Below, piece after piece: positions 2,175 through 18,842 of a DNA stretch of 64,000 nucleotides. Source of the stretch: a virus (Duplodnaviria; Heunggongvirae; Uroviricota; Caudoviricetes); the IMG/VR virus record IMGVR_UViG_3300042564_004235; one strand, 5' to 3'. Within the stretch, counting starts at the first letter, position 1, and each line of letters starts with the position of its first letter. Position numbers and translations under genes: made by a program. Under the pieces are notes generated by a model. It saw only the letters and a list, made by a program, of their open reading frames with translations. It had not been told where the DNA came from and searched no databases.

Positions 2175-2821
2175 AATATTTTTATTTTTTGTTAATATTG
2201 TTATTAACATCTTGTATTGAAATAATTGAAGATTTAAAATTAAACTCCGACGGATCAGGAACTTTTAAGTATTCAATTAACCTTAGTCAAAGTAAAACCA
2301 AAACCTCAGCAATACTTGCTCTTGATAGTTTATATGGTGAAAAAGTTCCTGAAATATCTGAAATAAAACAAAAAATTAGTTTTTTTAAAAAAACATTACA
2401 AGAACAAGAAGGTATCACAAATGTTACTATCACAGAAGATTATGAAAACTATATTGTAAGACTTCAGTGTGATTTTAAAAACGTGGAAATATTAGAAAGA
2501 GCATTAAAAAGTTCAGTATCAAAGTTATATCAAACAAATGAGTACGACTATGATTGGATATGTTACAAGGGTAAAACTTTAATTAGAAAGACACCAGTAC
2601 TTTATTTAGATGATATTAGAAAGTTTGGTGATAAGGATATTGATAAGTTAAAAACAGGTACCTATACTTCAATAACAAGATTTGCATCTAAAATAGACAC
2701 ATTTGAAAACATAAACTCAATTAGGTCTAAAAGTAATATGGCACTTATGATTAAAGTAAGTCCCGATATGTTATTGATAAATCAAAACTTGTTAGATAAT
2801 AAAATTAAATTACAAAAATGA
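2171..2821 (+). CDS. lipoprotein
   Basis: N-terminal signal peptide MKYFYFLLILLLTSC with a Bacteroidetes-type lipobox Cys. Start overlaps the previous stop in ATGA. Confidence 0.55.
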   Translation: MKYFYFLLILLLTSCIEIIEDLKLNSDGSGTFKYSINLSQSKTKTSAILALDSLYGEKVPEISEIKQKISFFKKTLQEQEGITNVTITEDYENYIVRLQCDFKNVEILERALKSSVSKLYQTNEYDYDWICYKGKTLIRKTPVLYLDDIRKFGDKDIDKLKTGTYTSITRFASKIDTFENINSIRSKSNMALMIKVSPDMLLINQNLLDNKIKLQK

Positions 2822-3666
2822 TAGAAACAAACAAGATTATAAATGGTGACTGCGTTGAGGTCATGAAAACATTACCTGAAGGTTGTATTGACCTAATCGT
2901 GACCTCACCACCCTATGGTGTTGGTATTGCTTATGATACGCATGATGACGACGTTGATTTTCAAGAATATGTTGTGTTTGCAAGAAATTGGTTAACTGAA
3001 GCTTATAAAGTATTAAAAGATGATGGAAGAATTGCATTAAACATCCCTTACGAAATTAACAGACAAAAGAAGGGTGGGAGAATATTCTTTGTTTCGGAGA
3101 TGTACCAAATAATGAAAGAAATCGGTTTTGGATTCTTTGGTATTGTTGATTTAGAAGAACAATCACCTCATCGTAGTAAAACCACAGCATGGGGATCGTG
3201 GATGAGTCCATCCAGTCCTTATATCTATAACCCAAAGGAATGTGTTATTTTGGCATATAAAAAAGTTCATATTAAAAAGGTTAAAGGTGAACCACAATGG
3301 AAAGGAGTCCCTACAGAGATAGAGCAAGAAGACGGAACTTTTAAGAAAAAAGTGGTGTACGAAGAACAAGATAAAAAAGAATTCATGGAACTTGTATTTG
3401 GTCAATGGAATTATTTTGCCGATACTAAGTCTCTAACCAAAGCAACCTTTTCAATGGACATACCAACAAAGGCAATCAAGATATTATCATATAAAGATGA
3501 TATAGTATTGGACCCATTTGCTGGAAGTGGTACTAGTTTAGTTGCCGCTGAAGTTCTCGGACGAAGGTGGTTAGGAATAGAACTATCACCAAACTACACC
3601 GAAATTGCGAAAACAAGAGTAGAATACTTTAAAAAGTTAGAAGATATTAAAGAAGACCAACAGTAA
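2818..3666 (+). CDS. DNA methyltransferase (beta-class N4-cytosine/N6-adenine)
   Basis: Motif IV DLIVTSPPYGVG precedes motif I VLDPFAGSGTSLVAAEVLGRRWLGIE, the beta-class order. SPPY points to amino-MTases (N4C or N6A). Confidence 0.85.
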   Translation: MIETNKIINGDCVEVMKTLPEGCIDLIVTSPPYGVGIAYDTHDDDVDFQEYVVFARNWLTEAYKVLKDDGRIALNIPYEINRQKKGGRIFFVSEMYQIMKEIGFGFFGIVDLEEQSPHRSKTTAWGSWMSPSSPYIYNPKECVILAYKKVHIKKVKGEPQWKGVPTEIEQEDGTFKKKVVYEEQDKKEFMELVFGQWNYFADTKSLTKATFSMDIPTKAIKILSYKDDIVLDPFAGSGTSLVAAEVLGRRWLGIELSPNYTEIAKTRVEYFKKLEDIKEDQQ

Positions 3667-3702
3667 TGTTGGTTTTTTTGTTTTGTTTCATATTTATTTA
3701 GT

Positions 3703-5442
3703 ATGAAAAGACTAATCAAAGAATCGGGAATTAGAGACATTAATTTACTGGCAAAAAGATACAAGAAAGCTAAAATATACTTTCACCAAGATTTAGATGG
3801 GGTTACTACGGCAATTGCAATGAAAAACTACCTTGAACAAAACGGTATTAATGTTGTTGATGCTGAAATTATTCAATACGGAGATAAAGAATTTGGAATA
3901 AAAAAACCTGAAGGTAGTGGTGAAGTTATGCCAGTTTTAGTTGATTTTGCACACGGAAAACCAATGTTTGTTATTCATACAGACCATCACGACAGTCAAG
4001 CGGGTGTAGAAAAGGACACCGCAACAAACTTCAAATCGTCAAGATCAAACGTTGAAACAATTTCACAAAGTATATCACCAAAAGAAATATTCACATCAGA
4101 AGACATACACCTAATATCAACAGTTGATTCTGCAAATTTTGCAGTAAATGACATAACACCGGAAATGGTAATGAATTATCTCTTCAAATATGATAAAAAT
4201 GAATCATTGAAAAGAAATAAAATGTTAATGGGGCTTGTAACAAACAAACTACTATTAGCATTTAAAAACAAACCAAAATTTTTAGAGCGACTTGTTTTAG
4301 AAGCAAAACCATCACTTTTGAGTATATTAAATTTGATTAAAAAAATCATAAAAGAAAAAGGTTATGCGAATATAGATGATTTAGTAAAAAATCAAGAAGA
4401 CTACGTTTCTAAAATGAAAAATTATAAAAATCTTGATGTACAAGGTAATGTGATTGTTCAATACGGAGGAGGATCAATGGTGAAGTCGGGATCTTATGAT
4501 AGGTATACACCATTTAGAAATAATCCTGATGCTGATTTTATTGTGATGGCTTGGCCTAAAGGGTTGGTTCAGTCTTCTTGCAATCCATACAAAAAAGAAA
4601 GAGCGTTAAAGGGTGTTGATTTAGGTGAGATAAAAGATGAGGTTTTAGATGTTTTTAAAAATGAATTAACCTCACAAAAAATAACATTTGGTACCCTAAA
4701 AAGATTATCTGAAATGGGAACGGAATATGGATCTGTTGGGTTTACATTTAAAGATATGATGGCAATATATGGAAACTCGCCTTCATTTAAAATACAAGGG
4801 GATTATGGAAGTTTAAGAGATATTTTATCTAATATATCATCTAGACTATATAGAAGTTTAAGTGAAAAACAAAGAATGTTATTAGATAAAGTTTCGGTTA
4901 ATGGGTTAGATGTTATAAAAGCTAATTCAGGAGGACATAAATGTATTACAAATATATCAGGTATTAATTTTTTATATAGTGGTAAAAAACAAGAAGGCGA
5001 TAGAAAATATGTTGATCTATTAAAGGATATTCAAAAAACATTTGTTGATATATTAAATAAAAAAATAGGGACACCAGCTAACCTAAAAGAATCTAAAGAA
5101 AGTTATAAAAAAGGTGTTGAATCACTTTTAAAAAATCATATAAAGGGTGGTAAAACTTTATCAGAAAAAGAATGGGACTATATAATGGAAAAATTAGATT
5201 GTGTTGTTGATAATAGAGGACAATGGGATCATCCTGAAAAATGTACAATGATTGAAAGTAATTCTATAACTATGAAAAACGTACCATACCCATTATTAGG
5301 TATTGATGATACTGGACATACAAAGTTAATGTTACCCGAAAAAACGTATAAATTTCCAGGTAATAACGTTTTTGAAATCCCACTTAAAGGAAAACACAAA
5401 ACTCTTGGAATAGAATTATTAAAAAATTTATCAAACTACTAG
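3703..5442 (+). CDS. DHH/DHHA1-family phosphoesterase
   Basis: DHH motif I FHQDLDG, motif III VIHTDHHDS, and a C-terminal DHHA1-like motif KANSGGHKCITN (GGGH-like). Confidence 0.7.
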   Translation: MKRLIKESGIRDINLLAKRYKKAKIYFHQDLDGVTTAIAMKNYLEQNGINVVDAEIIQYGDKEFGIKKPEGSGEVMPVLVDFAHGKPMFVIHTDHHDSQAGVEKDTATNFKSSRSNVETISQSISPKEIFTSEDIHLISTVDSANFAVNDITPEMVMNYLFKYDKNESLKRNKMLMGLVTNKLLLAFKNKPKFLERLVLEAKPSLLSILNLIKKIIKEKGYANIDDLVKNQEDYVSKMKNYKNLDVQGNVIVQYGGGSMVKSGSYDRYTPFRNNPDADFIVMAWPKGLVQSSCNPYKKERALKGVDLGEIKDEVLDVFKNELTSQKITFGTLKRLSEMGTEYGSVGFTFKDMMAIYGNSPSFKIQGDYGSLRDILSNISSRLYRSLSEKQRMLLDKVSVNGLDVIKANSGGHKCITNISGINFLYSGKKQEGDRKYVDLLKDIQKTFVDILNKKIGTPANLKESKESYKKGVESLLKNHIKGGKTLSEKEWDYIMEKLDCVVDNRGQWDHPEKCTMIESNSITMKNVPYPLLGIDDTGHTKLMLPEKTYKFPGNNVFEIPLKGKHKTLGIELLKNLSNY

Positions 5443-5591: not shown

Positions 5592-5732
5592 ATGAGCGAA
5601 GATCAAGTTGTAAATGAAATTTACGCCTACATCAATAACGAAGGTCAGAAAGTATATACACCTAATTATCAGTTTGCTGATATCATGGCTAAAAAATACG
5701 GAACTGACAAGGTGTACGTAGAAAAAAATTAA
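5592..5732 (+). CDS. small hypothetical protein (46 aa)
   Basis: Hand translation gives MSEDQVVNEIYAYINNEGQKVYTPNYQFADIMAKKYGTDKVYVEKN with stop at 5730-5732. Lies between two copies of the TTTGTAAAACAA promoter module. Confidence 0.3.
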   Translation: MSEDQVVNEIYAYINNEGQKVYTPNYQFADIMAKKYGTDKVYVEKN

Positions 5733-5763
5733 AAAAGTACTTGTCTAATTGAAAAAAAAGACT

Positions 5764-5790
5764 TAACTTTGTAAAACAAATCAGGAAAAG
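5764..5790 (+). promoter_or_regulatory. Bacteroidetes -7 promoter element (TAacTTTG) plus TTTGTAAAACAA leader; drives the GC-rich non-coding unit
   Basis: acttgtc ... taactttgtaaaacaaatcaggaaaagacc...gttctttgaaaaac. Same module as upstream of the tRNA genes. Confidence 0.4.
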
Positions 5791-5849
5791 ACCTGAAACG
5801 TTCTTTGAAAAACTAAAACCGACTGAAATTGTCGTCACAATTATAAAAA

Positions 5850-6696
5850 GCGAATTAACACCTCCCTTTCTTTAAGTGTGAAACTAAATTAAGTCATTGG
5901 GCCGTGTATGGTCCATTAAAATAAACCACGAAAGTGGGATAAAGTGAACCTAACGTGTAATGGGTTTGCGTCTTGGTGAGTCTTATGACTTGTTGAGGTC
6001 GAGTACACAAGCGGGATACCGTTTAACCTTTAGTACCGAGGGCAACGCTGTAGGGAAAGTGGTTCGACGAACTGGCAATGTGGGTTGTCAGTTTGAGGTG
6101 GGAACACCAAGAGGAATAACCCGTAGGAATTATGCAAAAAATAAGATTATCCGATTTTATTATTGCGTGTTCCATTATGATAGGGTACTTAAAACCGAAA
6201 GGTATGTTCGTGTACAGGTGGTGCTGTTACCAACCCTAATAATTCCTTACCAAAGGAATTGTTTTGAAGTAATCTTGATGTATGGAAATGGGGACATTTC
6301 ACAGAGTAGTTGAGTATCGATTCGTCCAAAAGATGGGTTGGCTCGGTTGGCAGACCACTACTTTGACAATCCACAACACACAACATTAATTTACATTAGG
6401 CTGTAAACTCTAAAAAGTAAAAATGTAAAAGTGTCTGTCAGGTTTGAATGAAAGGTGACTACATAGTAATGAGCCGTTCATTGCACACAAGGATCCCAAG
6501 TCTGAGTGTAATTATCCGAAAAACCTTTAGTCCCGCAAGGACGAACTGGGGAGGCATCCTCGGAAAGAGTCAAGTAAGGTGAGAGTAATTCAAACCTCAA
6601 GGAGTGATTCACCTAAATAATCGTCACTGAGGAATACTTCTCAAAAGGAAGTGGATAAGAGTAGAATAAATAATGACTCTAAAGGTTCTCAATAAC
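5850..6696 (+). ncRNA. candidate large structured non-coding RNA (GC-rich block, unknown family)
   Basis: About 50% GC against ~30% in the flanks. No ORF with proteome-like composition or start context. Promoter module upstream at 5764 and terminator at 6697-6720. Internal repeated segment cctttagtNccg...gacgaactgg at ~6027 and ~6527. Confidence 0.35.
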
Positions 6697-6720
6697 AGGT
6701 GTAATCTCAACCTTTTTTTA
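6697..6720 (+). terminator. rho-independent terminator
   Basis: aggtgtaatctcaacct hairpin followed by ttttttt. Confidence 0.5.
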
Positions 6721-9130: not shown

Positions 9131-9202
9131 GGTTCCGTGGTGAAAGGGATATCACAGTAGATTTCTAATCTTCTATTCCTGGTTCGAGTCCAGGCGGGAC
9201 TA
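9131..9202 (+). tRNA. tRNA-Arg (anticodon TCT), second copy
   Basis: Cloverleaf parts: acceptor GGTTCCG/CGGGACT, D-arm GTGA..TCAC, anticodon arm GTAGA-tttCTaa-TCTTC (one T:T mismatch), T-arm CCTGG-TTCGAGT-CCAGG. Overlaps the 3' end of the minus-strand HNH gene. Confidence 0.55.
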
Positions 9203-9719
9203 CTATTTTAGCGTGTACTTCTCTATGACAGTTTGCACAAACAAGAACACACTTGTCCAACTCAGATTTTACTATATCGTTAAATGAATACCTTTTTAAA
9301 CTGGATAAATTAAAATCTTTTTGTTTCGGATCTGTATGGTGGAATTCTAACGCACCTGTATACTTATCATACCCACATATTTGACAAGAACCACCTTTAT
9401 AATCAACCATTTGTTTTTTAAGTTTTTGCATTCTATTTAAAGACTGATCAGACGTACAAATTTTACAGTATGTTGATGAAAATTCAACCCCTCTACGTTT
9501 ATAGAACTGATCGGAAGGTAAGACCAACTTACATTTAGGACATTTTCTTTCAGGATTAACTCCTTTTTTCTCATTATATTTAAACTGGACATGCTTAGAC
9601 TCCAAACTATTTTTTTTAGCCCAATACCTAACAGTGGTTAATGATTTACCTGTTTCTTTACTAATTTGATTAAAAGATTTACCATCTTCAATAAATTTTT
9701 CTAACTCTTCTTTTTTCAT
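9165..9719 (-). CDS. HNH homing endonuclease with N-terminal HTH
   Basis: HTH-like SFNQISKETGKSLTTVRYWAKKN. HNH motif LEFHHTDPKQK...CVLVCANCHREVH. Last ~12 codons overlap tRNA-Arg on the opposite strand. Confidence 0.7.
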   Translation of the reverse strand: MKKEELEKFIEDGKSFNQISKETGKSLTTVRYWAKKNSLESKHVQFKYNEKKGVNPERKCPKCKLVLPSDQFYKRRGVEFSSTYCKICTSDQSLNRMQKLKKQMVDYKGGSCQICGYDKYTGALEFHHTDPKQKDFNLSSLKRYSFNDIVKSELDKCVLVCANCHREVHAKIVVPPGLEPGIED

Positions 9720-9919
9720 AGTTTAATGGATTATATTATATAAATATCCAACTAAACTAAAAAAGTTGATTATAATAAAAAAAATATTTATATTTTTAAT
9801 ATGGAAGAAATCTTTGAACAATTACACCAAGAATTTATTAATTCAGAAGAATTTATAAAATATCTTAAAGAACTTGACGAATATTCAGAAAAATATGTAT
9901 CTTTGTAAAAATAAACAAA

Positions 9920-10219
9920 ATGAACAAAGAACTTGTCTCCCTATTTTTCTCAATGACTCACGAATCTGACGAACTACTTGAAGTATTCAATAAGAAACAA
10001 CTATTAGATTTTTACATCAATGGATGTGAATTAAGACTTCGTATGGAAGGACGTTTGGAGAATTTTGAAAAGTTCAATAAAGAAACGGGAGTTGAGTTCA
10101 GCGCTTTGATCTCAAACAAATTTCACTTAGCAAAACAACTTCACGTATTAAAAATAGCCTTAGAAAAACTTGGAGTTAAAGGTTTAGAAGAAGATCAATA
10201 CGCAATGTTAAATAATTAA
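9920..10219 (+). CDS. hypothetical protein
   Basis: 99-aa ORF. A -7 box tatctttgtaaaaa sits ~12 nt upstream of the ATG. Confidence 0.5.
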   Translation: MNKELVSLFFSMTHESDELLEVFNKKQLLDFYINGCELRLRMEGRLENFEKFNKETGVEFSALISNKFHLAKQLHVLKIALEKLGVKGLEEDQYAMLNN

Positions 10220-10509
10220 TGAAATCATTTAAAGACATAGAATTTAAACCACATTCTTTTGGTGAGGGTGTACACGGACTATTATTTTTCCCAAATGGTT
10301 ATGGGGTGTCTGTTGTTAGATATAAAAACCCAATATCCAAAAGTTTTTCTTCCTACACATCAAATGATAGTGAATGGGAAGTTGCGATAATTTATGGTAA
10401 TAAAAAAGATTGGGAAATATCTTACAACACACATATTACTAATGACGTACTAGGACATTTAACTGAAGGTGAGGTTGATTGGGTTATGATTCAAGTTCAA
10501 GAACTATAA
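10219..10509 (+). CDS. hypothetical protein
   Basis: 96-aa ORF, start overlaps previous stop (TAATG). Confidence 0.5.
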   Translation: MKSFKDIEFKPHSFGEGVHGLLFFPNGYGVSVVRYKNPISKSFSSYTSNDSEWEVAIIYGNKKDWEISYNTHITNDVLGHLTEGEVDWVMIQVQEL

Positions 10510-10620
10510 GATATTTATAGATAACCTCTCAGGGATTTTGTTATTTTTACCCTATTGTCTAATACTCGGCCGTAAAAGCAATAAAGAAAAATTAACTCGG
10601 TAGTTGAGAATAACAAAGAA

Positions 10621-10680
10621 AATCACATGGTGTAATTGGTTAGCACAAAAATTGGTGTAGGTTTGAATCCTACTGTGATT
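10621..10680 (+). ncRNA. truncated tRNA-like element (no anticodon arm)
   Basis: Perfect 7-bp acceptor AATCACA/TGTGATT, canonical D-arm GTGT-AATTGGTTA-GCAC and T-arm GTAGG-TTTGAAT-CCTAC. Only ~10 nt lie where the anticodon arm and variable loop should be. Confidence 0.3.
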
Positions 10681-10709
10681 TCTTTTATCTTTTCCTATAT
10701 TTATTACAT

Positions 10710-11666
10710 ATGGAATTTAGACAGATATATTCACTTGCAAAAACTTTAGCCAATTTAGCCGAGTCCGAATTAAGTGATAAAGCAATAACAAGAACTAAAA
10801 TAAAACAATTGGCATCAAGTGACCATTTTGGTCAATTAATCATGTCAAAAGCACCAACAACTGCAGATAAACTTAAAATCATTATCACATCATGGTTTAT
10901 AATTAATAAGCCAAGACTTAAACCTGAAGACATCAATAGAATTATTAATAATCTTTATGTTTTAACAGTTGATATATATGATGAAATGGGTTATAAAAGT
11001 GAAACATGTGACGACTGTGCTGGTGATGGGTATTATGATTGTTCTAGTTGTGGTGGTAGTGGTGAACAAGATTGTAGATATTGTGATGGTGAAGGAACTG
11101 AAGAATGTTATGATTGTAGCGGTGAAGGATCTCAAGAGTGTAGGTATTGTGATGGTAAAGGAACTGAAATTGAAACAGAAGAAGATGATGAAGGGGACGA
11201 AGTTGAAGTTGAGGTAGAATGTGTTCATTGCGATGGTGAAGGTGCCGAAAGATGTGATTCTTGTGGTGGACAAGGAAATTTTAATTGTGGTACTTGTGAA
11301 GGTAGTGGTACTGAAAGTTGTGATTCTTGTGATGGAAATGGACACGAAGATTGTGATTATTGTGGTGGAAGTGGAGAAGTTGATAGTTATAATTATTATT
11401 ACAATATTGAAAGGGTTGATTATTTAATTCTTGGAAAAAGTTTAGAAAAATATATTGATAGACCAATAGAAAAAGATTTTTTTGATGATATTGAAAATGA
11501 AGATCCTTCTTTTGATTACTATATGATATTAAAATCAAATAACTATATGAGTGAAGAAGATGTTGATGATACAAGAGAACAATATGGTATGGAAGATAAT
11601 TTTGTAATTATTCAAGATATTAATAAACTCGAAGAACTTAGTATTAGAGTTCATGGACTTTCTTAA
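10710..11666 (+). CDS. Cys-rich repeat protein (CxxCxGxG repeats, DnaJ zinc-finger-like)
   Basis: At least 12 tandem CxxC(x)GxG motifs (CDDCAGDGYYDCSSCGGSGEQDCRYCDGEGTEECYDCSGEG...). Repetitive at DNA level. Acidic C-terminal half. Confidence 0.55.
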   Translation: MEFRQIYSLAKTLANLAESELSDKAITRTKIKQLASSDHFGQLIMSKAPTTADKLKIIITSWFIINKPRLKPEDINRIINNLYVLTVDIYDEMGYKSETCDDCAGDGYYDCSSCGGSGEQDCRYCDGEGTEECYDCSGEGSQECRYCDGKGTEIETEEDDEGDEVEVEVECVHCDGEGAERCDSCGGQGNFNCGTCEGSGTESCDSCDGNGHEDCDYCGGSGEVDSYNYYYNIERVDYLILGKSLEKYIDRPIEKDFFDDIENEDPSFDYYMILKSNNYMSEEDVDDTREQYGMEDNFVIIQDINKLEELSIRVHGLS

Positions 11667-11696
11667 CCATTAACATATTTATATAATAAAAAAATA

Positions 11697-11948
11697 ATGA
11701 AAAAAATAATTAGACTTACAGAATCAGATTTGGCAAGAATTGTTAGAAAGACATTAAAAGAAGATAAGGATAAAAATCCACTTTATAATGATATAAAAGA
11801 TATATTATGGGATTCATATGAATCTCAAGAATCTAAAGTATTTATATTAAGACAAATCGCTGATGAAATAGAAGGTGATATGGATTTAAGAAGTGACGTT
11901 TCAAAAAGATGGTCAAAAGAAAAGGAAGGACCGATAAATAGATTTTAA
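11697..11948 (+). CDS. leader-family small protein
   Basis: N-terminus [22 protein letters not shown]. Confidence 0.55.
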
Positions 11949-11956
11949 TAAAAAAT

Positions 11957-12649
11957 ATGAAAAAAATAATAAGACTTACAGAATCAGATTTAACAAGAAT
12001 TGTTAGACGAACAATAAATGAAATGGAGGATGAAGAAGACTATGGAACCATGAGAGGTAGATTTTTTGACGATGAGGATGAAGGCGACGAAGAGTGGGGT
12101 GAAACCGATATGGGTGAAGAAGAACTTCAAGATTTAATTGAAGAAGCAAGAGATTTTCTTGAAAATGAATGTGGATATGATTTACACGATATTAATTTAA
12201 TGGGCGAGGAAGATATTGTTGATGCTTTATATGATGAAGGTAATGATAATTTGGCTAACAATATTGAAAGTTTAATGGAAAAAGAAGGTTTTTATAATGC
12301 CGATGAGGACGAACCATACGATTCAATTGGAGGACACTCTGTTAATGATTTAAAGAAAGCATTTGCAAAAACAAAAGGAAGAGATGAAGAATTAGGTGAA
12401 GGGTTTGATGATTTTATTACCAAAAAAAGATTCAAAGACTACAACCCAAGAGAATTTAGAACAATTAAAAAAGATGATTACAAAAGAAATTTAAGACCAG
12501 GAATGAGAGACTTTGAAGGTACGGAATTAATGGGGTCGGAAGAAGAACCATTTGACGAATATAAAGATTTAAGTATGTATAATCCATATTATGATTCAGA
12601 TTTTGATGATGATGATTTTGAAGATTTTGATGACGAAGAATTTGTATAA
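11957..12649 (+). CDS. leader-family highly acidic protein
   Basis: N-terminus [22 protein letters not shown], then very D/E-rich with C-terminal [16 protein letters not shown]. Confidence 0.55.
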
Positions 12650-12885
12650 AAAAATAATAAAAACACTTGTCAATTAAAAAAAAATACCTATATTTGTAGG
12701 GTAATTAAAACTTTTAGAAAAAACTATATATTTATAACAAGATGAGAACAACTAATAAACATATGAACATTTGTAACCCGAGCATTCAGTGGTCGTTTAA
12801 CGTGTATCGTACGCTTAAGTCACATAATAGGGCATTTTCATTTATGAGTTGATAAAGATTAACAAAAAATATAAAAGAAATATAA

Positions 12886-12917
12886 GACCCGAACTCAAAA
12901 CAGTTCGGGTTTTTTTA
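12886..12917 (+). terminator. rho-independent terminator
   Basis: gacccgaactcaaaacagttcgggtc hairpin followed by ttttttt. Confidence 0.6.
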
Positions 12918-12930
12918 TACCCAAAAATTT

Positions 12931-13003
12931 GGTTCCTTAGTATAGTTTGGTAATATCCCGGCTTTGTAACCCGGAGTCATCAGTTCGAACCTGATAGGAA
13001 CCT
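12931..13003 (+). tRNA. tRNA-Thr (TGT)
   Basis: Acceptor GGTTCCT/AGGAACC is perfect. D-arm GTAT-agtttggta-ATAT. Anticodon arm CCGGC-tTTGTaa-CCCGG has one C:C mismatch. T-arm ATCAG-TTCGAAC-CTGAT. Confidence 0.55.
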
Positions 13004-13043
13004 CAAAAAAAGAAAAAGTTCTTTGACATATTGGCTTCATAAT

Positions 13044-13115
13044 TCTCCCCTCGTCTAATTGGCAGGACACCTGGTTTTGGACCAGAGAATCAAGGTTCGA
13101 GACCTTGGGGGAGAT
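13044..13115 (+). tRNA. tRNA-Gln (TTG)
   Basis: Acceptor TCTCCCC/GGGGAGA, D-arm GTCT..GGAC, anticodon loop ttTTGga, T-arm CAAGG-TTCGAGA-CCTTG. Preceded by gttctttgacata. Confidence 0.6.
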
Positions 13116-13211
13116 CAATAAGGAAGATGAATCACAGCGGCCTGTGACCCCGTCTTGAAAACGGGCGGTACCGAAAGGTATTGGGATCGACACCTACTTC
13201 TTCCTCTATAA

Positions 13212-13286
13212 CGGGATGTGGACTAATTGGTAAGTCGCCACTTTTGGGAAGTGGACATCATCCAGGTTCGAGTCCTGGTATCCCGA
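13212..13286 (+). tRNA. tRNA-Pro (TGG)
   Basis: Acceptor CGGGATG/TATCCCG, D-arm GACT-aattggta-AGTC, anticodon arm CCACT-ttTGGga-AGTGG, T-arm CCAGG-TTCGAGT-CCTGG. Confidence 0.7.
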
Positions 13287-13344
13287 CTAATAATAAACAA
13301 ATAAAAATAAGTGTTATGGAAAGTGACAAGTATGACAAACAGAA

Positions 13345-13419
13345 GATCTCGTAGCTCAGTTGGTTTAGAGCACTCCACTTTTAATGGAGGGGTCGTGAGT
13401 TCGAGCCTCACCGGGATCA
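13345..13419 (+). tRNA. tRNA-Lys (TTT)
   Basis: Acceptor GATCTCG/CGGGATC, D-arm GCTC..GAGC, anticodon arm CTCCA-ctTTTaa-TGGAG, T-arm GTGAG-TTCGAGC-CTCAC. Confidence 0.75.
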
Positions 13420-13424
13420 CAAAA

Positions 13425-13460
13425 AAATTTGGTAGATTAAAAAAAAGTATTATCTTTGTA
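13425..13460 (+). promoter_or_regulatory. Bacteroidetes-type promoter (TTTG at -33, tatcTTTG at -7)
   Basis: aaaaaaatttggtagattaaaaaaaagtattatctttgta immediately before ATG 13463. Near-identical module at 18585-18625 and 19835-19872. Confidence 0.5.
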
Positions 13461-13462
13461 AT

Positions 13463-13678
13463 ATGAAAACAGTAAAAGAAATTAAGAAAGGACTACCAAA
13501 AGGAATGGTTAAAGTTGGTGAAGAATGTGAAAGAGCTATTGTACGATTAATAAAACAAGGACAAACTCAAGAACAAGCAACAAACACCGTTCTAAGACTT
13601 TTGAATGATAGTAAACCTTATTTAGAACAAGGAATGTACTCTACCACAATTGAAAGTATTAAAATGATAACATCATAA
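13463..13678 (+). CDS. hypothetical small protein inside the tRNA island
   Basis: 71-aa ORF with promoter module directly upstream. Confidence 0.45.
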   Translation: MKTVKEIKKGLPKGMVKVGEECERAIVRLIKQGQTQEQATNTVLRLLNDSKPYLEQGMYSTTIESIKMITS

Positions 13679-13681
13679 AAC

Positions 13682-13755
13682 ACACTCTTAGCTCAGATGG
13701 TAGTAGCGGTAGTATTACAAACTACAGGTCACAGGTTCGACCCCTGTAGGGTGTA
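13682..13755 (+). tRNA. tRNA-Val (TAC)
   Basis: Acceptor ACACTCT/AGGGTGT (one G:U), anticodon arm GTAGT-atTACaa-ACTAC perfect, T-arm ACAGG-TTCGACC-CCTGT. Confidence 0.7.
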
Positions 13756-13765
13756 CAAAAAATAA

Positions 13766-13851
13766 GGGAGAGTTGAGCAATTGGTTGGCTCAGCAGACTG
13801 TAAATCTGTCGTCGTGAGACCTTGGGGGTTCGAGTCCCTCCTCTCCCACCA
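13766..13851 (+). tRNA. tRNA-Tyr (GTA), type II, encoded CCA
   Basis: Acceptor GGGAGAG/CTCTCCC, anticodon loop ctGTAaa, 15-nt variable arm, T-arm GGGGG-TTCGAGT-CCCTC, 3' ACCA encoded. Confidence 0.75.
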
Positions 13852-13855
13852 CAAT

Positions 13856-13928
13856 GGACAAGTAGCTCAATTGGTAGAGCAATCGGCTGTTAACCGATAG
13901 GTTACAGGATCGTACCCTGTCTTGTCCG
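13856..13928 (+). tRNA. tRNA-Asn (GTT)
   Basis: Acceptor GGACAAG/CTTGTCC perfect, D-arm GCTC-aattggta-GAGC, anticodon arm ATCGG-ctGTTaa-CCGAT, T-loop ATCGTAC. Confidence 0.75.
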
Positions 13929-14004
13929 CAACCACCGAGAAGTGACTGACGAGTCCGCTGACGAGCTGAGGGGGTGGTTAAGAAATACCCCTAAATACGT
14001 ACCA

Positions 14005-14077
14005 GCTCACGTAGCTCAATTGGTAGAGCGCCGATCTGATACGTCGGAGGTAATGGGATCGTAACCCGTCGTGAACA
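14005..14077 (+). tRNA. tRNA-Ile (GAT)
   Basis: Acceptor GCTCACG/CGTGAAC (one C:A mismatch), canonical D-arm, anticodon arm CCGAT-ctGATac-GTCGG. Confidence 0.6.
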
Positions 14078-14135
14078 CAAAAAGGGGAATAACTAGTGTG
14101 GGTGCCCCAACTACTGCAGGAGTACCACACTCTAC

Positions 14136-14221
14136 GGAAGATAAACCTTGATGGCGATAGGGTCCGCCTGCTAAGCGAGATGTACCCGTAAGGGTGTTTG
14201 GTTCGATTCCAATGTCTTCCG
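14136..14221 (+). tRNA. tRNA-Ser (GCT), type II
   Basis: Acceptor GGAAGAT/GTCTTCC, anticodon arm TCCGC-ctGCTaa-GCGAG, long variable arm tgtACCCgtaaGGGTg, T-loop TTCGATT. Confidence 0.55.
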
Positions 14222-14226
14222 CAAAT

Positions 14227-14296
14227 GCCGATAGGAGAGGTTTCCGGTCCGGGCTCATATCCTGGATGTCATTGGGTTCGATACCCTTTATCGGTA
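14227..14296 (+). tRNA. tRNA-like, probable CAT anticodon (Met/Ile2), degenerate
   Basis: Acceptor GCCGATA/TATCGGT and anticodon arm CCGGG-ctCATat-CCTGG fold. D-arm and T-stem are weak (T-stem 3 GC pairs plus two U:U). Only 70 nt. Confidence 0.35.
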
Positions 14297-14302
14297 CTAT
14301 AT

Positions 14303-14376
14303 GGTGTATGTAGCTCAGTTGGTAGAGTGTCGTTCTGTGAAAGCGGAGGTCGTGGGATCGTGACCCATCATACACA
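14303..14376 (+). tRNA. tRNA-His (GTG) with G-1
   Basis: Extra 5' G before the perfect acceptor GTGTATG/CATACAC. Canonical D-arm. Anticodon arm TCGTT-ctGTGaa-AGCGG (2 G:U). Confidence 0.75.
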
Positions 14377-14382
14377 CAACAT

Positions 14383-14454
14383 ACCTTCGTAGCTTAATGG
14401 AAAAGCCTTAGAATACGAATCTAATGATTGGGAGTTCGACCCTCTCCGAAGGTA
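14383..14454 (+). tRNA. tRNA-Arg (ACG)
   Basis: Acceptor ACCTTCG/CGAAGGT perfect, D-stem GCTT/AAGC, anticodon arm TTAGA-atACGaa-TCTAA perfect, T-arm GGGAG-TTCGACC-CTCTC. Confidence 0.75.
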
Positions 14455-14457
14455 CAA

Positions 14458-14632
14458 AAGATGATAAGAAGCGTAGAATGACAGACGTGGAGAGACGTGT
14501 CGCAAGGGTACAAACTAAGGAAAGGTATTCAATCTTAATTGTATTGATGTAATAACCCAACTCTCTAATGGTGTGTGAAGCTTTGATAGAAGTAGCGGGA
14601 TTCCTGATAAAGTCATTCATCATCTTTTATTC
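14458..14632 (+). ncRNA. candidate structured RNA element in tRNA island
   Basis: About 175 nt non-coding between two tRNAs. Closed by an inverted repeat aaagatgat ... atcatcttt and ending in a T-run. No ORF. Confidence 0.2.
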
Positions 14633-14704
14633 GCCCCTTTCGTATAATGGAAGTACAACACTCTTCTAAGGTGTCAGGTCGGAGTTCGAGTCTCTGAGGG
14701 GGTA
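14633..14704 (+). tRNA. tRNA-Arg (TCT)
   Basis: Acceptor GCCCCTT/AGGGGGT (2 G:U), D-arm GTAT-aatggaa-GTAC, anticodon arm ACACT-ctTCTaa-GGTGT, T-arm CGGAG-TTCGAGT-CTCTG. Confidence 0.7.
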
Positions 14705-14742
14705 CGGATCCGATGTCGGTCCCGAGCTAGGTCGGGCAATTT

Positions 14743-14814
14743 GCGTCTCTGGTGTAATAGGTAGCATGATGGATTCCAAACCCATCGGTCAGGGTTCGAG
14801 ACCTTGGGGACGCG
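14743..14814 (+). tRNA. tRNA-Trp (CCA)
   Basis: Acceptor GCGTCTC/GGGACGC, anticodon arm ATGGA-ttCCAaa-CCCAT (one A:C), T-arm CAGGG-TTCGAGA-CCTTG. Confidence 0.65.
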
Positions 14815-14879
14815 CTAAAAATTTAATTTTGTTAATTAAAAAAAAATACTTATATTTGTTTTATTAAATATTAAAAAAT

Positions 14880-15314
14880 ATGACTTTAAAAATTTCTAAC
14901 ATACAAAAACAAAAATTTTATGATTTAGGACATAAATTACCAAAATGTATAAATCCTGGATGCAATAACAATGTTGCTGTAAGAAATTGGTCCAATTGGT
15001 CTTTTAAATCTGAATGTCCACGTTGCCAAAAGGCAAGAAAGAAGGGTGTTGTTATTGAGGGTATCACTATACATAAAAAAAAATATTGTGAAAATATAGA
15101 CGGTCATTTAGGTTTTATGTGTCCTGTTCCTAGTATAGAAAATTGGAAAGGGTTTGAGGTTGGATGTTTAGATTTAGATCACATAGATGGAGACCACAAT
15201 AACAATTCAGTAGAAAATGTTAAAACTTATTGTAAATTGTGTCACAATAGAAAAAGTATTGAGAGCGGTGACTGCTCTAATAAAAAAGATTCGGCAAGAA
15301 CATTTAACACATGA
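14880..15314 (+). CDS. HNH endonuclease
   Basis: Zn-ribbon Cys pairs CINPGC...CPRC. HNH core GCLDLDHIDGDHNNNSVENVKTYCKLCHNRK. Stop overlaps the start of the MTase gene in ATGA. Confidence 0.7.
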   Translation: MTLKISNIQKQKFYDLGHKLPKCINPGCNNNVAVRNWSNWSFKSECPRCQKARKKGVVIEGITIHKKKYCENIDGHLGFMCPVPSIENWKGFEVGCLDLDHIDGDHNNNSVENVKTYCKLCHNRKSIESGDCSNKKDSARTFNT

Positions 15315-16096
15315 AACAAAAAATTATATGTAAAGATTGTCTTTTAGGTATTAAAGACATTAAAAATGAAACAATACACTTAACTTGGACATCACCACCA
15401 TACTTTAATGCAAAATCTTATAGTACATGGGAAACATATGATGATTATTTATCGTTTCTTAAAGAAGTGTTTTCTGAAGTGTTTAGAGTAACTAAAGAAG
15501 GTAGAATGTGTGTTGTTAATTTATCTCCGGTAATAATACCTAGAGAAAATAGGAATTGTGAGAGTAAAAGATTACCAATACCCTTTGATTTTTTTCCAAT
15601 AATGAAAGAAATTGGTTGGAAATATTTAGATGATATTGTGTGGGTAAAACCTGAAGGAGCGGCAATAAATAGAAATGGAGGGTTTTACCAACATAGAAAA
15701 CCAGTTGCATATAAACCAAATTTAGTGTCTGAAGTAATATTTGTTTTTCAAAAACCGGCAAGTTTTCTTATAGATAAAGTTGTTAGATCTTATAAAGGTG
15801 AAATTTTAGAAAAATCACTGGTTAATGAAACTTATGAGAGGAGTAATGTTTGGACGATAAACCCCGAAACTAAATCAAAACATTTAGCACCATACCCTGA
15901 AGAGTTATCAGATAAAATTATAAAATATTATTCTTTTGTTGGTGATATTGTTTTAGATCCATTTTTAGGTTCGGGAACAACATTATTATCTTGTGAAAAA
16001 TTAGATAGGTTAGGTATTGGGTTTGATATACATGAGGAATACTGTGAAATGTGTACTGATAGAATTAATGATTGGGTTAATAAACATAAAAAATAA
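15311..16096 (+). CDS. DNA methyltransferase (beta-class N4C/N6A), second copy
   Basis: Motif IV LTWTSPPYFNA and motif I VLDPFLGSGTTLLSCEKLDRLGIGFDIHEEY. Confidence 0.85.
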   Translation: MKQKIICKDCLLGIKDIKNETIHLTWTSPPYFNAKSYSTWETYDDYLSFLKEVFSEVFRVTKEGRMCVVNLSPVIIPRENRNCESKRLPIPFDFFPIMKEIGWKYLDDIVWVKPEGAAINRNGGFYQHRKPVAYKPNLVSEVIFVFQKPASFLIDKVVRSYKGEILEKSLVNETYERSNVWTINPETKSKHLAPYPEELSDKIIKYYSFVGDIVLDPFLGSGTTLLSCEKLDRLGIGFDIHEEYCEMCTDRINDWVNKHKK

Positions 16097-16172
16097 GGAA
16101 CTATGGTGTAAGTATGGTGTGTCACGCTGGTCTGAAAAACCAGAGGTTGCGGTTCGACTCCGCATGGTTCCA
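16097..16172 (+). tRNA. tRNA-Phe (GAA)
   Basis: Acceptor GGAACTA/TGGTTCC, anticodon arm CTGGT-ctGAAaa-ACCAG perfect, T-arm TGCGG-TTCGACT-CCGCA. D-region is unusually long, with a direct 7-nt duplication atggtgt. Confidence 0.6.
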
Positions 16173-16188
16173 CAAAAAAATAGAAATA

Positions 16189-16644
16189 ATGAACAGAGTA
16201 TTTAGAACGGTTAACGGTGAAACAATTCCTGATGTGGTAAAACATACCTTAGATGTTCTAAAAGAATGTCCATGGGTGGAAGTACACATCGGTACAGACT
16301 CACAAAACCACAGAAGAAGTACCGTGTATGTTACGGTAATAGCTTATAGGTATGGGAATCGTGGTGTCCACTACATACTACATAAACAGAAAGTGAAAAA
16401 AATTAAAGACAAATGGACACGTCTTTGGAATGAGGCCGATTATTCAATTGAGGTTGCGGAATGGTTAACCAAAAAAGTAAAGGTACAAGTTGAGATTGAC
16501 TTAGATTATAATAGTCAAGAAAAACATTTCAGTTCAAAATTGGTTCAACCTGTTGTTGGGTGGGCAACATCTTTGGGGTATAAAACAAACATTAAACCCG
16601 ACAACCAAATTGCAACAAAAGCGGCAGATCACCACTGCCGTTAA
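16189..16644 (+). CDS. hypothetical protein
   Basis: Track ORF 16114.. runs through tRNA-Phe; first plausible ATG is 16189 (MNRVFRTVNGE). Contains a HIGTDSQ motif of unknown significance. Confidence 0.45.
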   Translation: MNRVFRTVNGETIPDVVKHTLDVLKECPWVEVHIGTDSQNHRRSTVYVTVIAYRYGNRGVHYILHKQKVKKIKDKWTRLWNEADYSIEVAEWLTKKVKVQVEIDLDYNSQEKHFSSKLVQPVVGWATSLGYKTNIKPDNQIATKAADHHCR

Positions 16645-16649
16645 TATAT

Positions 16650-16721
16650 GCTCAGGTGTCTGATAGGTAAAGTCCCGGTCTGCAAAACCGTGGTATGTGG
16701 GTTCAAATCCCTCCCTGAGCT
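16650..16721 (+). tRNA. tRNA-Cys (GCA)
   Basis: Acceptor GCTCAGG/CCTGAGC perfect, anticodon arm CCGGT-ctGCAaa-ACCGT, T-arm GTGGG-TTCAAAT-CCCTC. D-arm irregular. Confidence 0.6.
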
Positions 16722-16730
16722 CAAAAACAG

Positions 16731-16811
16731 GCCTTCGTGGTGGAACGGTAGACACATCCGGCTTAGACCCGGATTCCGAAAGGAGTGAGAGTTCGAGTCT
16801 CTCCGGAGGTA
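16731..16811 (+). tRNA. tRNA-Leu (TAG), type II
   Basis: Acceptor GCCTTCG/CGGAGGT, anticodon arm TCCGG-ctTAGac-CCGGA perfect, 13-nt variable arm, T-arm GAGAG-TTCGAGT-CTCTC. Confidence 0.75.
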
Positions 16812-16851
16812 CAAATCTTTATTATCAACATATTTATATTAAAATGTTGAT

Positions 16852-17964
16852 ATGAAAAGAATTATTAGACTAACAGAATCTGATTTAACAAGAATAGTTA
16901 AACAAGTTATTCAAGAACAATCAGAACACGTTAAAAATTTATATAAATCGTGGGCCAATAAAAGGAGTGGGAATCCCGAAAAAGCATTATCAATTATTGA
17001 TGATGTTTTTAAATACCAAAAACAATTATCAAAAAAAGATTTTGCTCAATATTCTTCATACGAAGAATTGGTTGGTGATTTAAATAGAATTAAACAAGCC
17101 GCCAAATCAGAGGATGCCACAAAAATTTATGAAGATAAAGATTTGTTGGTATTAAAGGCAAACACACACGAAGCAAGTTGTAAATATGGTGCAGGATCTA
17201 AATGGTGTACAACCGCAAAAGATGATAGTTCATATTGGAGAAGACATAATGATACTGGAACTGAGTTCTTTTGGATATTCAAAAATAAACCACAAGATGA
17301 TCCGAATCATAAATTTTCTTATCACGTAAAAATAACTGGAGAGCCTGATTGGTGTAATGCGGTTAATAATTGTATGTCAACTTCAAGATTATCTGAAGAG
17401 TCTTATCCAAAGAAACATCCAAGATATACTGAAATTATTGAAAAATTACAAGAAATTCATGATGCTAGAGGATTGAAAGCACCAGAAAAAAGTGAAAGAC
17501 AACGACTTATTAATCAAATTGTAGATTGGGTTAGTGAAAATTTTGATGAAATTGAACCTATAATCCTTGATAATGATACTATTAATGATATTGTAAACAA
17601 TTGTACTTCATTTTTTTTAGATAGTGATGTATATGATTATTTACCATTTGATATAGATTTAGATGATGAAGACGCGACAGATGAATTTATCAGTAATTTA
17701 GAAAAAGAAATAAGAAACAATTTTGTACCAGATGTTGATGGGTCATCATTTGAAATTATTCATGGTTTATCGTGGTTAATTAATGATAATTTTGAAGACC
17801 CAATTGATTACTTAAACGCACACACACCGGAAGAGGTAATTAATGAATTAGGTGAAATGGATTCAAGAGGTCTTGAAGAAATTATTAATGAAGTACTTTA
17901 TGGTGGAATTACAGATCAATTAGTAGATTTCACTCTATATTACGGAGATAATTATCAACCATAA
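16852..17964 (+). CDS. leader-family protein (370 aa)
   Basis: N-terminus [22 protein letters not shown]. Acidic C-terminal half. Confidence 0.55.
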   Translation: MKRIIRLTESDLTRIVKQVIQEQSEHVKNLYKSWANKRSGNPEKALSIIDDVFKYQKQLSKKDFAQYSSYEELVGDLNRIKQAAKSEDATKIYEDKDLLVLKANTHEASCKYGAGSKWCTTAKDDSSYWRRHNDTGTEFFWIFKNKPQDDPNHKFSYHVKITGEPDWCNAVNNCMSTSRLSEESYPKKHPRYTEIIEKLQEIHDARGLKAPEKSERQRLINQIVDWVSENFDEIEPIILDNDTINDIVNNCTSFFLDSDVYDYLPFDIDLDDEDATDEFISNLEKEIRNNFVPDVDGSSFEIIHGLSWLINDNFEDPIDYLNAHTPEEVINELGEMDSRGLEEIINEVLYGGITDQLVDFTLYYGDNYQP

Positions 17965-18267
17965 TATTTGATTAATTAAAAAATAAGTTATATATTTGTA
18001 TTGTGATTGGTTGATGACTCCCACCGGTAAAATAGGTTGAGTCTCCCACACAAAAAACTGGGTTTGGCCACCCGGAGGTTAGCTAACCAAAAATTAACGA
18101 GGGTTAAGGTATGTGTCCCCATTATACACGATTTTGGGTTTTGATACAAGGAAGGTTGGACACTAATTCGTGATTAAATGTGTTCTTGTAGTTAATTTTA
18201 TTTTAAAAAAACTTGACACTTTTGAAAAGTAGCATATATTTATAAGACAAAACAAATAAAAACGCAA

Positions 18268-18342
18268 ATGAAAAATTTACATATCATACTATTAGGCGGA
18301 TTGGCGATAGCTGAGGATCGTTCCTTTAGGGAGGTGGTATGA
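18268..18342 (+). CDS. tiny hydrophobic peptide ORF (24 aa), speculative
   Basis: Hand translation MKNLHIILLGGLAIAEDRSFREVV. Followed by a strong terminator at 18367-18398. Confidence 0.2.
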   Translation: MKNLHIILLGGLAIAEDRSFREVV

Positions 18343-18366
18343 TAATTTAATACATAATAAATTTTG

Positions 18367-18398
18367 AAACCCATCTCCAAAAGAGGTGGGTTTTTTTG
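18367..18398 (+). terminator. rho-independent terminator
   Basis: aaacccatctccaaaagaggtgggttt hairpin followed by tttttt. Confidence 0.65.
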
Positions 18399-18419
18399 TT
18401 TAAGGGTATTGTGGAATTA

Positions 18420-18468
18420 AAAGTTTTTTGTAACTTTGTAAAACAAAAGAGGTTCTTTGACATAATGG
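18420..18468 (+). promoter_or_regulatory. promoter module (taacTTTGtaaaacaa ... ggttctttgacata) upstream of tRNA-Leu
   Basis: Same TTTGTAAAACAA plus GGTTCTTTGA(C/A)AT module as at 5764, 18612 and 13018. Confidence 0.45.
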
Positions 18469-18481
18469 TGATGAATAAAAT

Positions 18482-18565
18482 GGTTCGGTGGTGGAATTGG
18501 TATACACGACAGGTTTAAGCCCTGTTGCCCTTTGAGGCTTGTGGGTTCGAGTCCCACTCGGACTA
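18482..18565 (+). tRNA. tRNA-Leu (TAA), type II
   Basis: Acceptor GGTTCGG/TCGGACT (3 G:U), D-stem GTG/CAC, anticodon arm ACAGG-ttTAAgc-CCTGT perfect, 15-nt variable arm, T-arm GTGGG-TTCGAGT-CCCAC. Confidence 0.6.
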
Positions 18566-18584
18566 CAGAAAAAAAGTTTAAAAA

Positions 18585-18625
18585 AGATTTGGCAGATTAA
18601 AAAAGATTATATATCTTTGTAAAAC
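18585..18625 (+). promoter_or_regulatory. Bacteroidetes-type promoter (aaaaagtttaaaaaagatttggcagatt ... tatcTTTGtaaaacaa)
   Basis: Near-identical to the modules at 13425 and 19835. Confidence 0.5.
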
Positions 18626-18759
18626 AAATAAGGAAAAAAGGTTCTTTGAAATATTAAAAATATGTGGTTGTAAGAAACGGGAAACTCGTAAAGTGCATTA
18701 ACCTGTTGACTCAAGATGGTGAAACGAGAGTTTGAGTCAACTACTAAACTACAAATTAT

Positions 18760-18833: not shown

Positions 18834-18842
18834 ACAAACATA

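Follow-up and report, generated by a model that had tools for sequence, protein, structure and literature searches.

A phage-only family of DHH-DHHA1 phosphoesterases with a swappable C-terminal module, and a separate 2H phosphoesterase, in a large uncultured phage

Phages could in principle escape cyclic-oligonucleotide-based anti-phage signalling systems (CBASS) and type III CRISPR immunity by cleaving the messengers, and a stretch of caudoviricete DNA that encodes both a DHH-type and a 2H-type phosphoesterase raises the question of whether either enzyme serves this purpose. The stretch analysed here, hereafter the window, is 64,000 nucleotides (nt) long (IMG/VR record IMGVR_UViG_3300042564_004235), and a preliminary description, made from its sequence, had singled out a 579-amino acid (aa) DHH-DHHA1 protein and a 168-aa 2H protein as possible counter-defence enzymes. 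The two genes are 35.5 kb apart, with no linkage to each other. What is new at this locus is a large, unannotated, phage-only clade of DHH-DHHA1 proteins, fixed beside a DNA methyltransferase and carrying a swappable C-terminal module. Sequence, fold and gene neighbourhood cannot show whether the DHH or the 2H enzyme destroys immune signals; nothing in the results points to cyclic oligonucleotides over other phosphoester substrates, and both superfamilies include degraders of immune messengers.

The DHH gene, with its DHH core and DHHA1 GGH motif, proved to be real, as first described, since its motifs can be read from the sequence, are invariant among relatives and fall in a confidently predicted fold. 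In an alignment of 52 relatives, with identity down to 27%, H28, D30, D32, G33, D81, D94, H95, H96, D142 and G410-G411-H412 never vary, and R267, Y268, N294, P295, K333 and E337 of the second lobe are likewise invariant. The predicted structure (pLDDT 90) is that of a two-lobed DHH-DHHA1 enzyme and aligns over 271-298 residues with two-lobed DHH-DHHA1 structures; the protein has the two-metal motifs I-IV and a linked DHHA1 lobe with GGH, as is usual in the superfamily, and its predicted active site is intact. Because the curated Pfam models are not passed (DHH, PF01368, 20.1 bits against a threshold of 28.1; DHHA1, PF02272, no match), superfamily membership is assigned from structure and motifs. 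Searches of PHROG, NCBIfam and PADLOC gave no match, there is no sequence match in the PDB, family profile included, and neither an OB fold nor any other domain for binding long strands was detected in the protein. Judging by target size (317-340 aa, against a core of ~455 aa here), the helical linker between the lobes would be longer than in NrnA-type enzymes of ~320 aa. A recoded stop codon, as seen in some huge phages, was considered and rejected: the TAG is followed by AT-rich DNA typical of intergenic regions, orthologues end at the same place, and the standard code fits.

Comparison of the predicted structure with known ones placed the P. furiosus PF0399 DHH protein first (PDB 5yh1, score 18.0), followed by the PAP phosphatase of M. 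thermolithotrophicus (8a8k, 17.4), RecJ-Cdc45 of M. thermautotrophicus (7bhi, 16.8) and RecJ2 of M. jannaschii (7ykv, 15.8). A next tier is formed by a Bacteroides NrnA-like protein (13.7), TM1595 (13.4), DhhP (13.3), S. aureus NrnA/Pde2 (13.2), PggH (11.6), GdpP (11.0) and bacterial RecJ (10.9), and identity to all of these is 12-17%. NrnA, GdpP and Pde2, to which the preliminary description likened the protein, are not its closest counterparts, as archaeal RecJ-like nucleases and the PAP phosphatase rank above them. The modelled fold puts the protein nearer to enzymes of linear ends than to cyclic-dinucleotide phosphodiesterases (PDEs), and the ranking cannot assign a substrate, because very similar structures of this superfamily use very different substrates.

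The phage protein differs from each of these groups. The archaeal RecJ-like nucleases (5yh1, 7bhi, 7ykv) share 12% identity with it and show no sequence-level match even by family profile, and the phage protein differs from them in its own insertions, its swappable C-terminal module and its probable Bacteroidota, not archaeal, hosts. NrnA, Pde2, TM1595, DhhP, GdpP and PggH are cellular enzymes of ~320 aa with housekeeping or signalling roles (nanoRNases, pAp phosphatases, cyclic-dinucleotide or pApA/pGpG PDEs), whereas the phage core has ~455 aa, is phage-only, lies below the Pfam DHH threshold and has no DHHA1 match. Some jumbo phages (Bacillus phage AR9 "NrnB", Erwinia phage PhiEaH1, Pseudomonas phage PaBG) also encode DHH enzymes, for which a role in countering SMODS and type III CRISPR signals has been proposed (Iyer et al. 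2021, PMC7824862). These are NrnA/NrnB-like proteins of ~280-350 aa that match the window model weakly (Foldseek E 1e-5 to 1e-3, 10-14% identity), and in BFVD the known jumbo-phage proteins (AR9, PhiEaH1, PaBG, Bobb) appear as small, distant relatives. The family of the window is a clade separate from the AR9, PhiEaH1 and PaBG proteins and is known only from uncultured phages. The anti-defence idea is a hypothesis already raised in general form for the DHH and 2H enzymes of jumbo phages (PMC7824862), and it is neither supported nor refuted by our results.

The family is large and confined to phages. A word-indexed search of 5.8 billion metagenomic proteins returned more than 3,800 homologues (clusters at 90% identity), every one "hypothetical", and an exhaustive hidden Markov model (HMM) search of 1.84 billion cluster representatives gave 963 matches at E<=1e-3, 165 of them at E<=1e-30. 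HMM matches are few, therefore the profile does not pull in cellular NrnA, RecJ and GdpP proteins, which number in the hundreds of thousands. At least 586 loci were confirmed in IMG/VR, against four in 185,579 prokaryotic species genomes (GTDB, one genome per species); three of these four lie on 2-3-kb contigs of metagenome-assembled genomes assigned to unrelated taxa, and the fourth is on a 283-kb contig resembling a jumbo phage. Close structures in BFVD come solely from uncultured phages, and tblastn of the DHH protein against the phages of INPHARED found only two unannotated, uncultured phages of 635-642 kb. The preliminary description had held that housekeeping nanoRNases as nearest structural neighbours, together with a host-like phylogeny, would speak against an anti-signalling role; neighbours of housekeeping type were found, and the phylogeny, with so few loci in cellular genomes, is not host-like.

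Gene order around the DHH gene is constant on one side. Among 80 loci of the family the commonest neighbour is an N6/N4 DNA methyltransferase directly upstream (64/80). An independent sample of 80 loci was seeded on the methyltransferase. Of these, 53 extend 2.5 kb or more downstream of it, and every one has the DHH core there (53/53; median gap 74 nt), so the DHH gene is fixed in this lineage and not sporadic. Compared with their counterparts in the window, the DHH cores have a median identity of 65.7%, the methyltransferases of 88.5% and the DUF3310 genes of 85.5%, and the identity of the core is below that of the methyltransferase in 59 of 60 paired loci; the core thus evolves faster than the neighbouring genes. 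The proposal that extreme conservation marks a core housekeeping enzyme was rejected, the methyltransferase and DUF3310 genes being more conserved than the DHH core. Downstream the genes vary: in sister phages, inspection of the sequences showed a gene like DUF192 and one for a NUDIX hydrolase, and the sub-lineage of the window has a GOLLD RNA. A few genes upstream of the DHH gene, sister phages also have genes identified by eye as those of a glutamine synthetase of eukaryote-like type and a dTDP-glucose 4,6-dehydratase-like enzyme (cluster 10: L017-L023, L026, L035, L067; cluster 15: L029-L032, L054, L062, L065-L074).

The family is unusual in having a modular C-terminus. The conserved core ends at about residue 456, and the sequence beyond differs among relatives: in place of the module of the window, with its motif GQWDHPEK...ITMKNV..., they carry SET, RimI-like GNAT, PG_binding_1 alone or with GH19, Peptidase_M23 or a domain of the DUF3293/S-adenosylmethionine (SAM)-lyase family, and single representatives end in an FtsH-like AAA+M41 unit, a sigma-70 factor or DUF5661. 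The long fusion forms are uninterrupted open reading frames (ORFs) in independent contigs. The module of the window also occurs as a free-standing gene of ~123 aa. On three contigs of 132-218 kb (L087-L089, ~3130-5372), the core, an unrelated 141-aa ORF and the 123-aa module are three separate genes in the same synteny, again with GOLLD downstream, and the 123-aa gene product matches residues 470-574 of the window protein at 74% identity. In Foldseek, the module aligned over 64 columns (44% identity) with a stretch of a LysM-domain protein from virus NIOZ-UU157 and over 81 columns (28%) with a Cellulophaga phage phi4:1 protein labelled "structural protein". With the free-standing homologue (P0393) as query, tblastn gave one significant match (E 4e-6), in Leptolyngbya phage Lbo-JY46, to the N-terminal part of a 495-aa protein whose gene adjoins that of a giant virion structural protein; the last 82 residues of the DHH protein gave no tblastn match among phages.

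An arrangement of this kind has a precedent in the polyvalent proteins of phages (Iyer et al. 2017, PMC5512222). Their defining trait is that domains which attack the cell wall, modify proteins or relate to nucleotides occur together, and the key prediction for them is that they are packed into the virion and enter the host along with the DNA. As in those proteins, one conserved enzymatic domain is combined here with disparate partners (GNAT, peptidoglycan hydrolases, peptidases, virion-related modules). Disparate enzymes are found across the family, and the window protein by itself joins one enzymatic domain to a non-enzymatic module. The likeness has limits, in that DHH domains are mentioned 0 times in that survey (PMC5512222) and most family members here have two modules.

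We therefore propose, with a probability of about one half, that the family consists of phage-only, active, metal-dependent DHH-DHHA1 enzymes with a modular C-terminus that act as effectors of host takeover or counter-defence, and that the 2H protein is a separate phosphodiesterase. The effector reading is preferred for its likeness to the polyvalent proteins, a constant enzyme being joined to partners that attack cell walls, modify proteins or are nucleotide-related. In the proposed mechanism the DHH lobe (H28, D30, D32, D81, D94-H95-H96, D142) would hold two Mn2+ or Mg2+ ions, as is common in the superfamily, and the DHHA1 lobe (R267, G410-G411-H412) would grip the phosphate and nucleotide of a small substrate; closure of the lobes would then cut a phosphoester bond, either terminal or internal, in a short oligonucleotide or a nucleotide derivative. 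Candidate substrates are nanoRNA or nanoDNA, pAp and possibly a linear or cyclic signalling oligonucleotide, messenger degradation being one candidate activity among several. The variable C-terminal module would have no part in catalysis and probably places or delivers the enzyme; our best guess is that the enzyme serves host takeover or counter-defence and has the architecture of a polyvalent protein.

Several observations weigh against such an effector. The sigma-factor and FtsH-like fusions would be unfit for a delivered protein, with one representative of each and an artefact of assembly or gene calling possible, and the idea of delivery with the virion draws on short, weak module matches (64-81 columns, and one tblastn E of 4e-6). 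The nearest DHH structures are enzymes of linear substrates (RecJ-like nucleases, pAp phosphatase) and not cyclic-nucleotide PDEs; an anti-defence gene would usually be patchy in its distribution and not fixed, as this gene is; and the genes around it are of auxiliary kinds (methyltransferase, tRNA, NUDIX and others), with no identifiable structural or early operon.

The 2H protein is predicted to be an independent, active phosphodiesterase that would open a 2',3'-cyclic phosphate or a 2'-5'/3'-5' linkage. It was described at first as resembling LigT and Acb1-type enzymes alike, and we confirmed this: a 2H fold is confidently predicted (pLDDT 94), both HxT motifs are present, and scores against the two groups are about equal. 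In structure comparison P. horikoshii LigT and D. radiodurans CPDase scored 13.0 each, human Usb1 12.8, a penguinpox cyclic GMP-AMP (cGAMP) PDE (9bkq) 12.3, YjcG 12.1, AKAP18 11.9, the Acb1-like PDE-9 of phage BCSR5 (9q2y) 11.4 and FBB1 Acb1 (PDB 7t27) 11.2. All 28 relatives tested match both Pfam models (best E 1.9e-7 for Acb1 and 2.3e-6 for 2_5_RNA_ligase2), and many close homologues carry a precomputed match to PF23474; the window protein itself is below the Pfam Acb1 threshold. The signal from hhalign was weak for both, with 32% probability for T4 Acb1 over 20 columns around the second HxT and 2.7% for E. coli ThpR. No sequence match was found in the PDB, family profile included, and none in PADLOC and NCBIfam. 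Acb1 (T4 gp57B, FBB1) and PDE-9 have lid elements that set substrate choice, whose counterparts were not identified in the window protein, and the LigT/ThpR types (P. horikoshii PH0099, D. radiodurans CPDase, B. subtilis YjcG, E. coli ThpR) share 9-16% identity with it. When 12 viral 2H enzymes were assayed against 18 messengers, specificity varied by structural group and two groups were inactive on all (bioRxiv 10.1101/2025.08.21.671373). Because some viral 2H structural groups cleave none of the 18 messengers, membership of the fold does not predict an anti-signalling role.

There is close to an even chance that the 2H protein is instead a 2',3'-cyclic phosphodiesterase for healing RNA ends, which with an RNA ligase and a phosphatase would repair tRNAs cut by host anticodon nucleases. 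Its PHROG match is consistent with this (PHROG 755, "RNA ligase", E 3e-9), and the same window has 23 tRNA genes, a DraRnl-type RNA ligase and a HAD_SAK_2 phosphatase, the latter two making up what looks like a dispersed RNA-repair toolkit; in Maribacter phage Colly_1 the 2H homologue is 3.6 kb from a HAD-SAK gene. However, unlike the genes of LigT/ThpR RNA repair, the 2H gene of the window is outside any RNA-repair operon, the ligase and HAD genes being 12-17 kb away; the genes that flank it are entirely different from one related phage to the next, and none serves RNA repair; no polynucleotide kinase was found among the window ORFs scanned; and the Pfam Acb1 matches are as good as the LigT-type ones. 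We regard RNA healing and messenger degradation as about equally likely for this protein. A calcineurin-like metallophosphoesterase gene 2.1 kb from the 2H gene, which matches the candidate defence family PDC-S10 of PADLOC over nearly its whole length, has a homologous Metallophos gene near the 2H homologue in two related loci (L092, L093), and it may encode another nucleotide- or messenger-directed phosphoesterase.

A strict anti-signalling interpretation, in which the DHH protein is a ring nuclease or cyclic-oligonucleotide PDE that removes CBASS or type III CRISPR messengers (cGAMP, cA3, cA4, cA6, c-di-AMP) and the 2H protein is of Acb1 type, seems to us unlikely. It would account for a phage-only family that evolves faster than its neighbours and adjoins a DNA methyltransferase, typical of anti-restriction genes, and for the fusion of some members to a domain of the SAM-lyase family, which includes the anti-restriction SAMase of phage T3. 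On the 2H side it agrees with the Acb1 and PF23474 matches of the relatives and with the higher hhalign probability for T4 Acb1 than for ThpR. Yet cyclic-nucleotide PDEs are not the nearest DHH structures, no messenger-binding domain (CARF, SAVED) is fused or adjacent to the family members in the loci and fusions examined, the DHH gene is fixed and not accessory, and some viral 2H groups cleave no messenger.

Nucleotide salvage or housekeeping is likewise a doubtful explanation. An NrnA-like nanoRNase/nanoDNase or pAp phosphatase would finish the breakdown of host nucleic acids to mononucleotides or remove inhibitory pAp, and so feed the replication of a large genome. This fits with a gene fixed in its lineage, with the thymidylate synthase and non-specific endonuclease of the window, and with the NUDIX hydrolase directly downstream of the DHH gene in sister phages. 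It is not obvious, however, why an enzyme of pure salvage should be joined to peptidoglycan-binding, SET, GNAT or SAM-lyase-like domains, or to a module of structural proteins; moreover, the core is ~455 aa long with large insertions, compared with ~320 aa for NrnA, and it evolves faster than the neighbouring genes.

A bolder version of the effector idea appears quite improbable at present. Here the DHH core would be the constant "warhead" of a so far undescribed family of modular effectors in freshwater jumbo phages with probable Bacteroidota hosts; the C-terminal modules (the structural-protein/LysM-associated one, or domains for binding or hydrolysing peptidoglycan) would carry it to the entry site or hold it there, and it would destroy nucleotide immune messengers at the start of infection. 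To our knowledge, the phage enzymes shown to degrade immune messengers all have other folds (2H Acb1, Apyc1, DUF1874 or SAVED ring nucleases), the fold of Apyc1 being that of a metallo-beta-lactamase, and the only DHH-DHHA1 messenger nuclease we know of is cellular, MAD of Sulfolobus. No experimentally characterised viral DHH counter-defence enzyme was found in the literature searched, and if the warhead reading is true, this would be the first viral DHH-type anti-signalling enzyme.

The RNA genes downstream bear on the weakest alternative. The GOLLD RNA begins 310 nt after the DHH gene on the same strand, its 5' part extending to ~5752 by conservation with related loci (5752-6713, full-length), and the tRNA array begins 3.7 kb further on. 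In 26 of 80 family loci, with DHH identities from 51% to 100%, a GOLLD RNA follows the DHH gene on the same strand. In 11 loci that lack GOLLD there is no Rfam family whatsoever, a DHH gene lies upstream in 16 of 52 loci seeded on GOLLD, and two contigs carry both at separate places; for these reasons a functional DHH-GOLLD pair was rejected as a general rule. The adjacency is a property of one sub-lineage, and that the enzyme acts on or with GOLLD RNA in that sub-lineage is still more speculative. GOLLD also appears to have its own promoter-like TAnnTTTG box. A RecJ/Cdc45-like nuclease on long single-stranded DNA or RNA, serving replication, recombination or the processing of GOLLD or the tRNA array, is therefore very improbable, since against the proximity of these RNA genes stand the lack of a detected long-strand-binding domain, the limited reach of the adjacency, the separate promoter-like box and the absence of replication genes adjoining the DHH gene in the window and related loci. 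Between the DHH gene and GOLLD there is also a small ORF with a promoter-like element in front of it, and a gene of like size and position was called in five related loci (L001, L002, L087-L089).

The window is a fragment of a large, uncultured phage, as identical or near-identical DHH proteins are found on freshwater metagenomic viral contigs and distant relatives on contigs of 270-300 kb. Nearly all of its genes are on the + strand, its GC content is ~30%, and near-identical DNA was not found among 50,697 deposited phage genomes (INPHARED). The -7 box TAnnTTTG is typical of Bacteroidota, and it is enriched within 60 nt upstream of + strand ORF starts (14 observed, against 5.8 +/- 2.2 expected). 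Cultured phages with a 2H homologue at >=35% identity are Maribacter phages only. This enrichment, the Maribacter-phage homologues and the recurrence of the DHH C-terminal module in a Cellulophaga phage protein together suggest a Bacteroidota host.

Features of the window are collected in the table. Among the auxiliary genes are two DNA methyltransferases and an SPFH protein. A PAS histidine kinase is present, a sensor kinase being unusual cargo for a phage. Thymidylate synthase is followed directly by a GIY-YIG homing endonuclease, reminiscent of the td/I-TevI association of phage T4. The non-specific endonuclease and the second calcineurin-like phosphoesterase adjoining it could serve the degradation of host nucleic acids. 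A tRNA gene with a predicted four-base anticodon may encode a tRNA of frameshift or suppressor type, or may have been miscalled.

Table. Features of the 64,000-nt window discussed in the text, in order of position.
Feature	Position	Strand	Evidence or score
N6/N4 DNA methyltransferase, constant upstream partner, 37-nt gap to DHH gene	2818-3666	+	Pfam N6_N4_Mtase E 1e-33
DHH-DHHA1 phosphoesterase gene, 579 aa, ATG start, TAG stop included	3703-5442	+	
DHH catalytic lobe, residues ~13-160, motifs I-IV	3739-4182	+	Pfam DHH stretch 25-113, invariant columns, model secondary structure
Motif I, H28-Q-D30-L-D32-G33	3784-3801	+	
Motif II, D81	3943-3945	+	
Motif III, D94-H95-H96	3982-3990	+	
Motif IV, D142	4126-4128	+	
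Long helical inter-lobe linker, residues ~161-243	4183-4431	+	model helices 169-186, 193-200, 205-219, 224-239
DHHA1-type substrate lobe, residues ~244-456, helical insertion ~300-395	4432-5070	+	invariant columns, model
DHHA1 motif, G410-G411-H412	4930-4938	+	
Separable C-terminal module, residues 467-579	5101-5439	+	
TAnnTTTG boxes, examples	5535, 5764, 6800, 12689, 14851		
Small ORF, 46 aa, preceded by promoter-like TTGACA...TAGATTTG	5594-5734	+	
Promoter-like TAnnTTTG box TAACTTTG	~5764	+	
GOLLD RNA, Rfam match	6302-6713	+	318 bits, threshold 150
tRNA array, 23 genes	9131-21682	+	ARAGORN
Extra tRNA match beyond the 23	18761-18831		Rfam
"freshwater-1" RNA, RF02979, within tRNA array	19476-19537	+	85 bits, threshold 72
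tRNA gene, predicted four-base anticodon (ttaa)	21607-21682	+	
PAS histidine kinase, 532 aa, tandem PAS domains and histidine-kinase ATPase domain	22771-24369	+	
Thymidylate synthase	38878-39717	+	
GIY-YIG homing endonuclease, I-TevI-like (GIY-YIG, NUMOD3, I-TevI DNA-binding domains)	39766-40518	+	
2H phosphoesterase gene, 168 aa, HxT motifs H49/T51 and H124/T126	40991-41497	+	
Calcineurin-like metallophosphoesterase, PDC-S10	43623-44327	+	PADLOC E 8e-79
DNA/RNA non-specific endonuclease	48655-49245	-	E 3e-23
Second calcineurin-like phosphoesterase	49273-49926	+	
DraRnl/Rnl5-type RNA ligase with PHA02142 OB domain	53902-55035	+	TIGR02306 E 4e-36
HAD_SAK_2 "Swiss Army Knife" RNA-repair phosphatase	59018-59563	+	E 3e-25

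In conclusion, a family of more than 3,800 clusters at 90% identity lies below the thresholds of Pfam, PHROGs and NCBIfam, is fixed in an abundant lineage of freshwater phages and has an unusual modular build. If the DHH enzyme is a nanoRNase, the finding is ordinary. The substrate of one purified core would annotate thousands of "hypothetical proteins" and decide between salvage, nucleic-acid processing and immune evasion.

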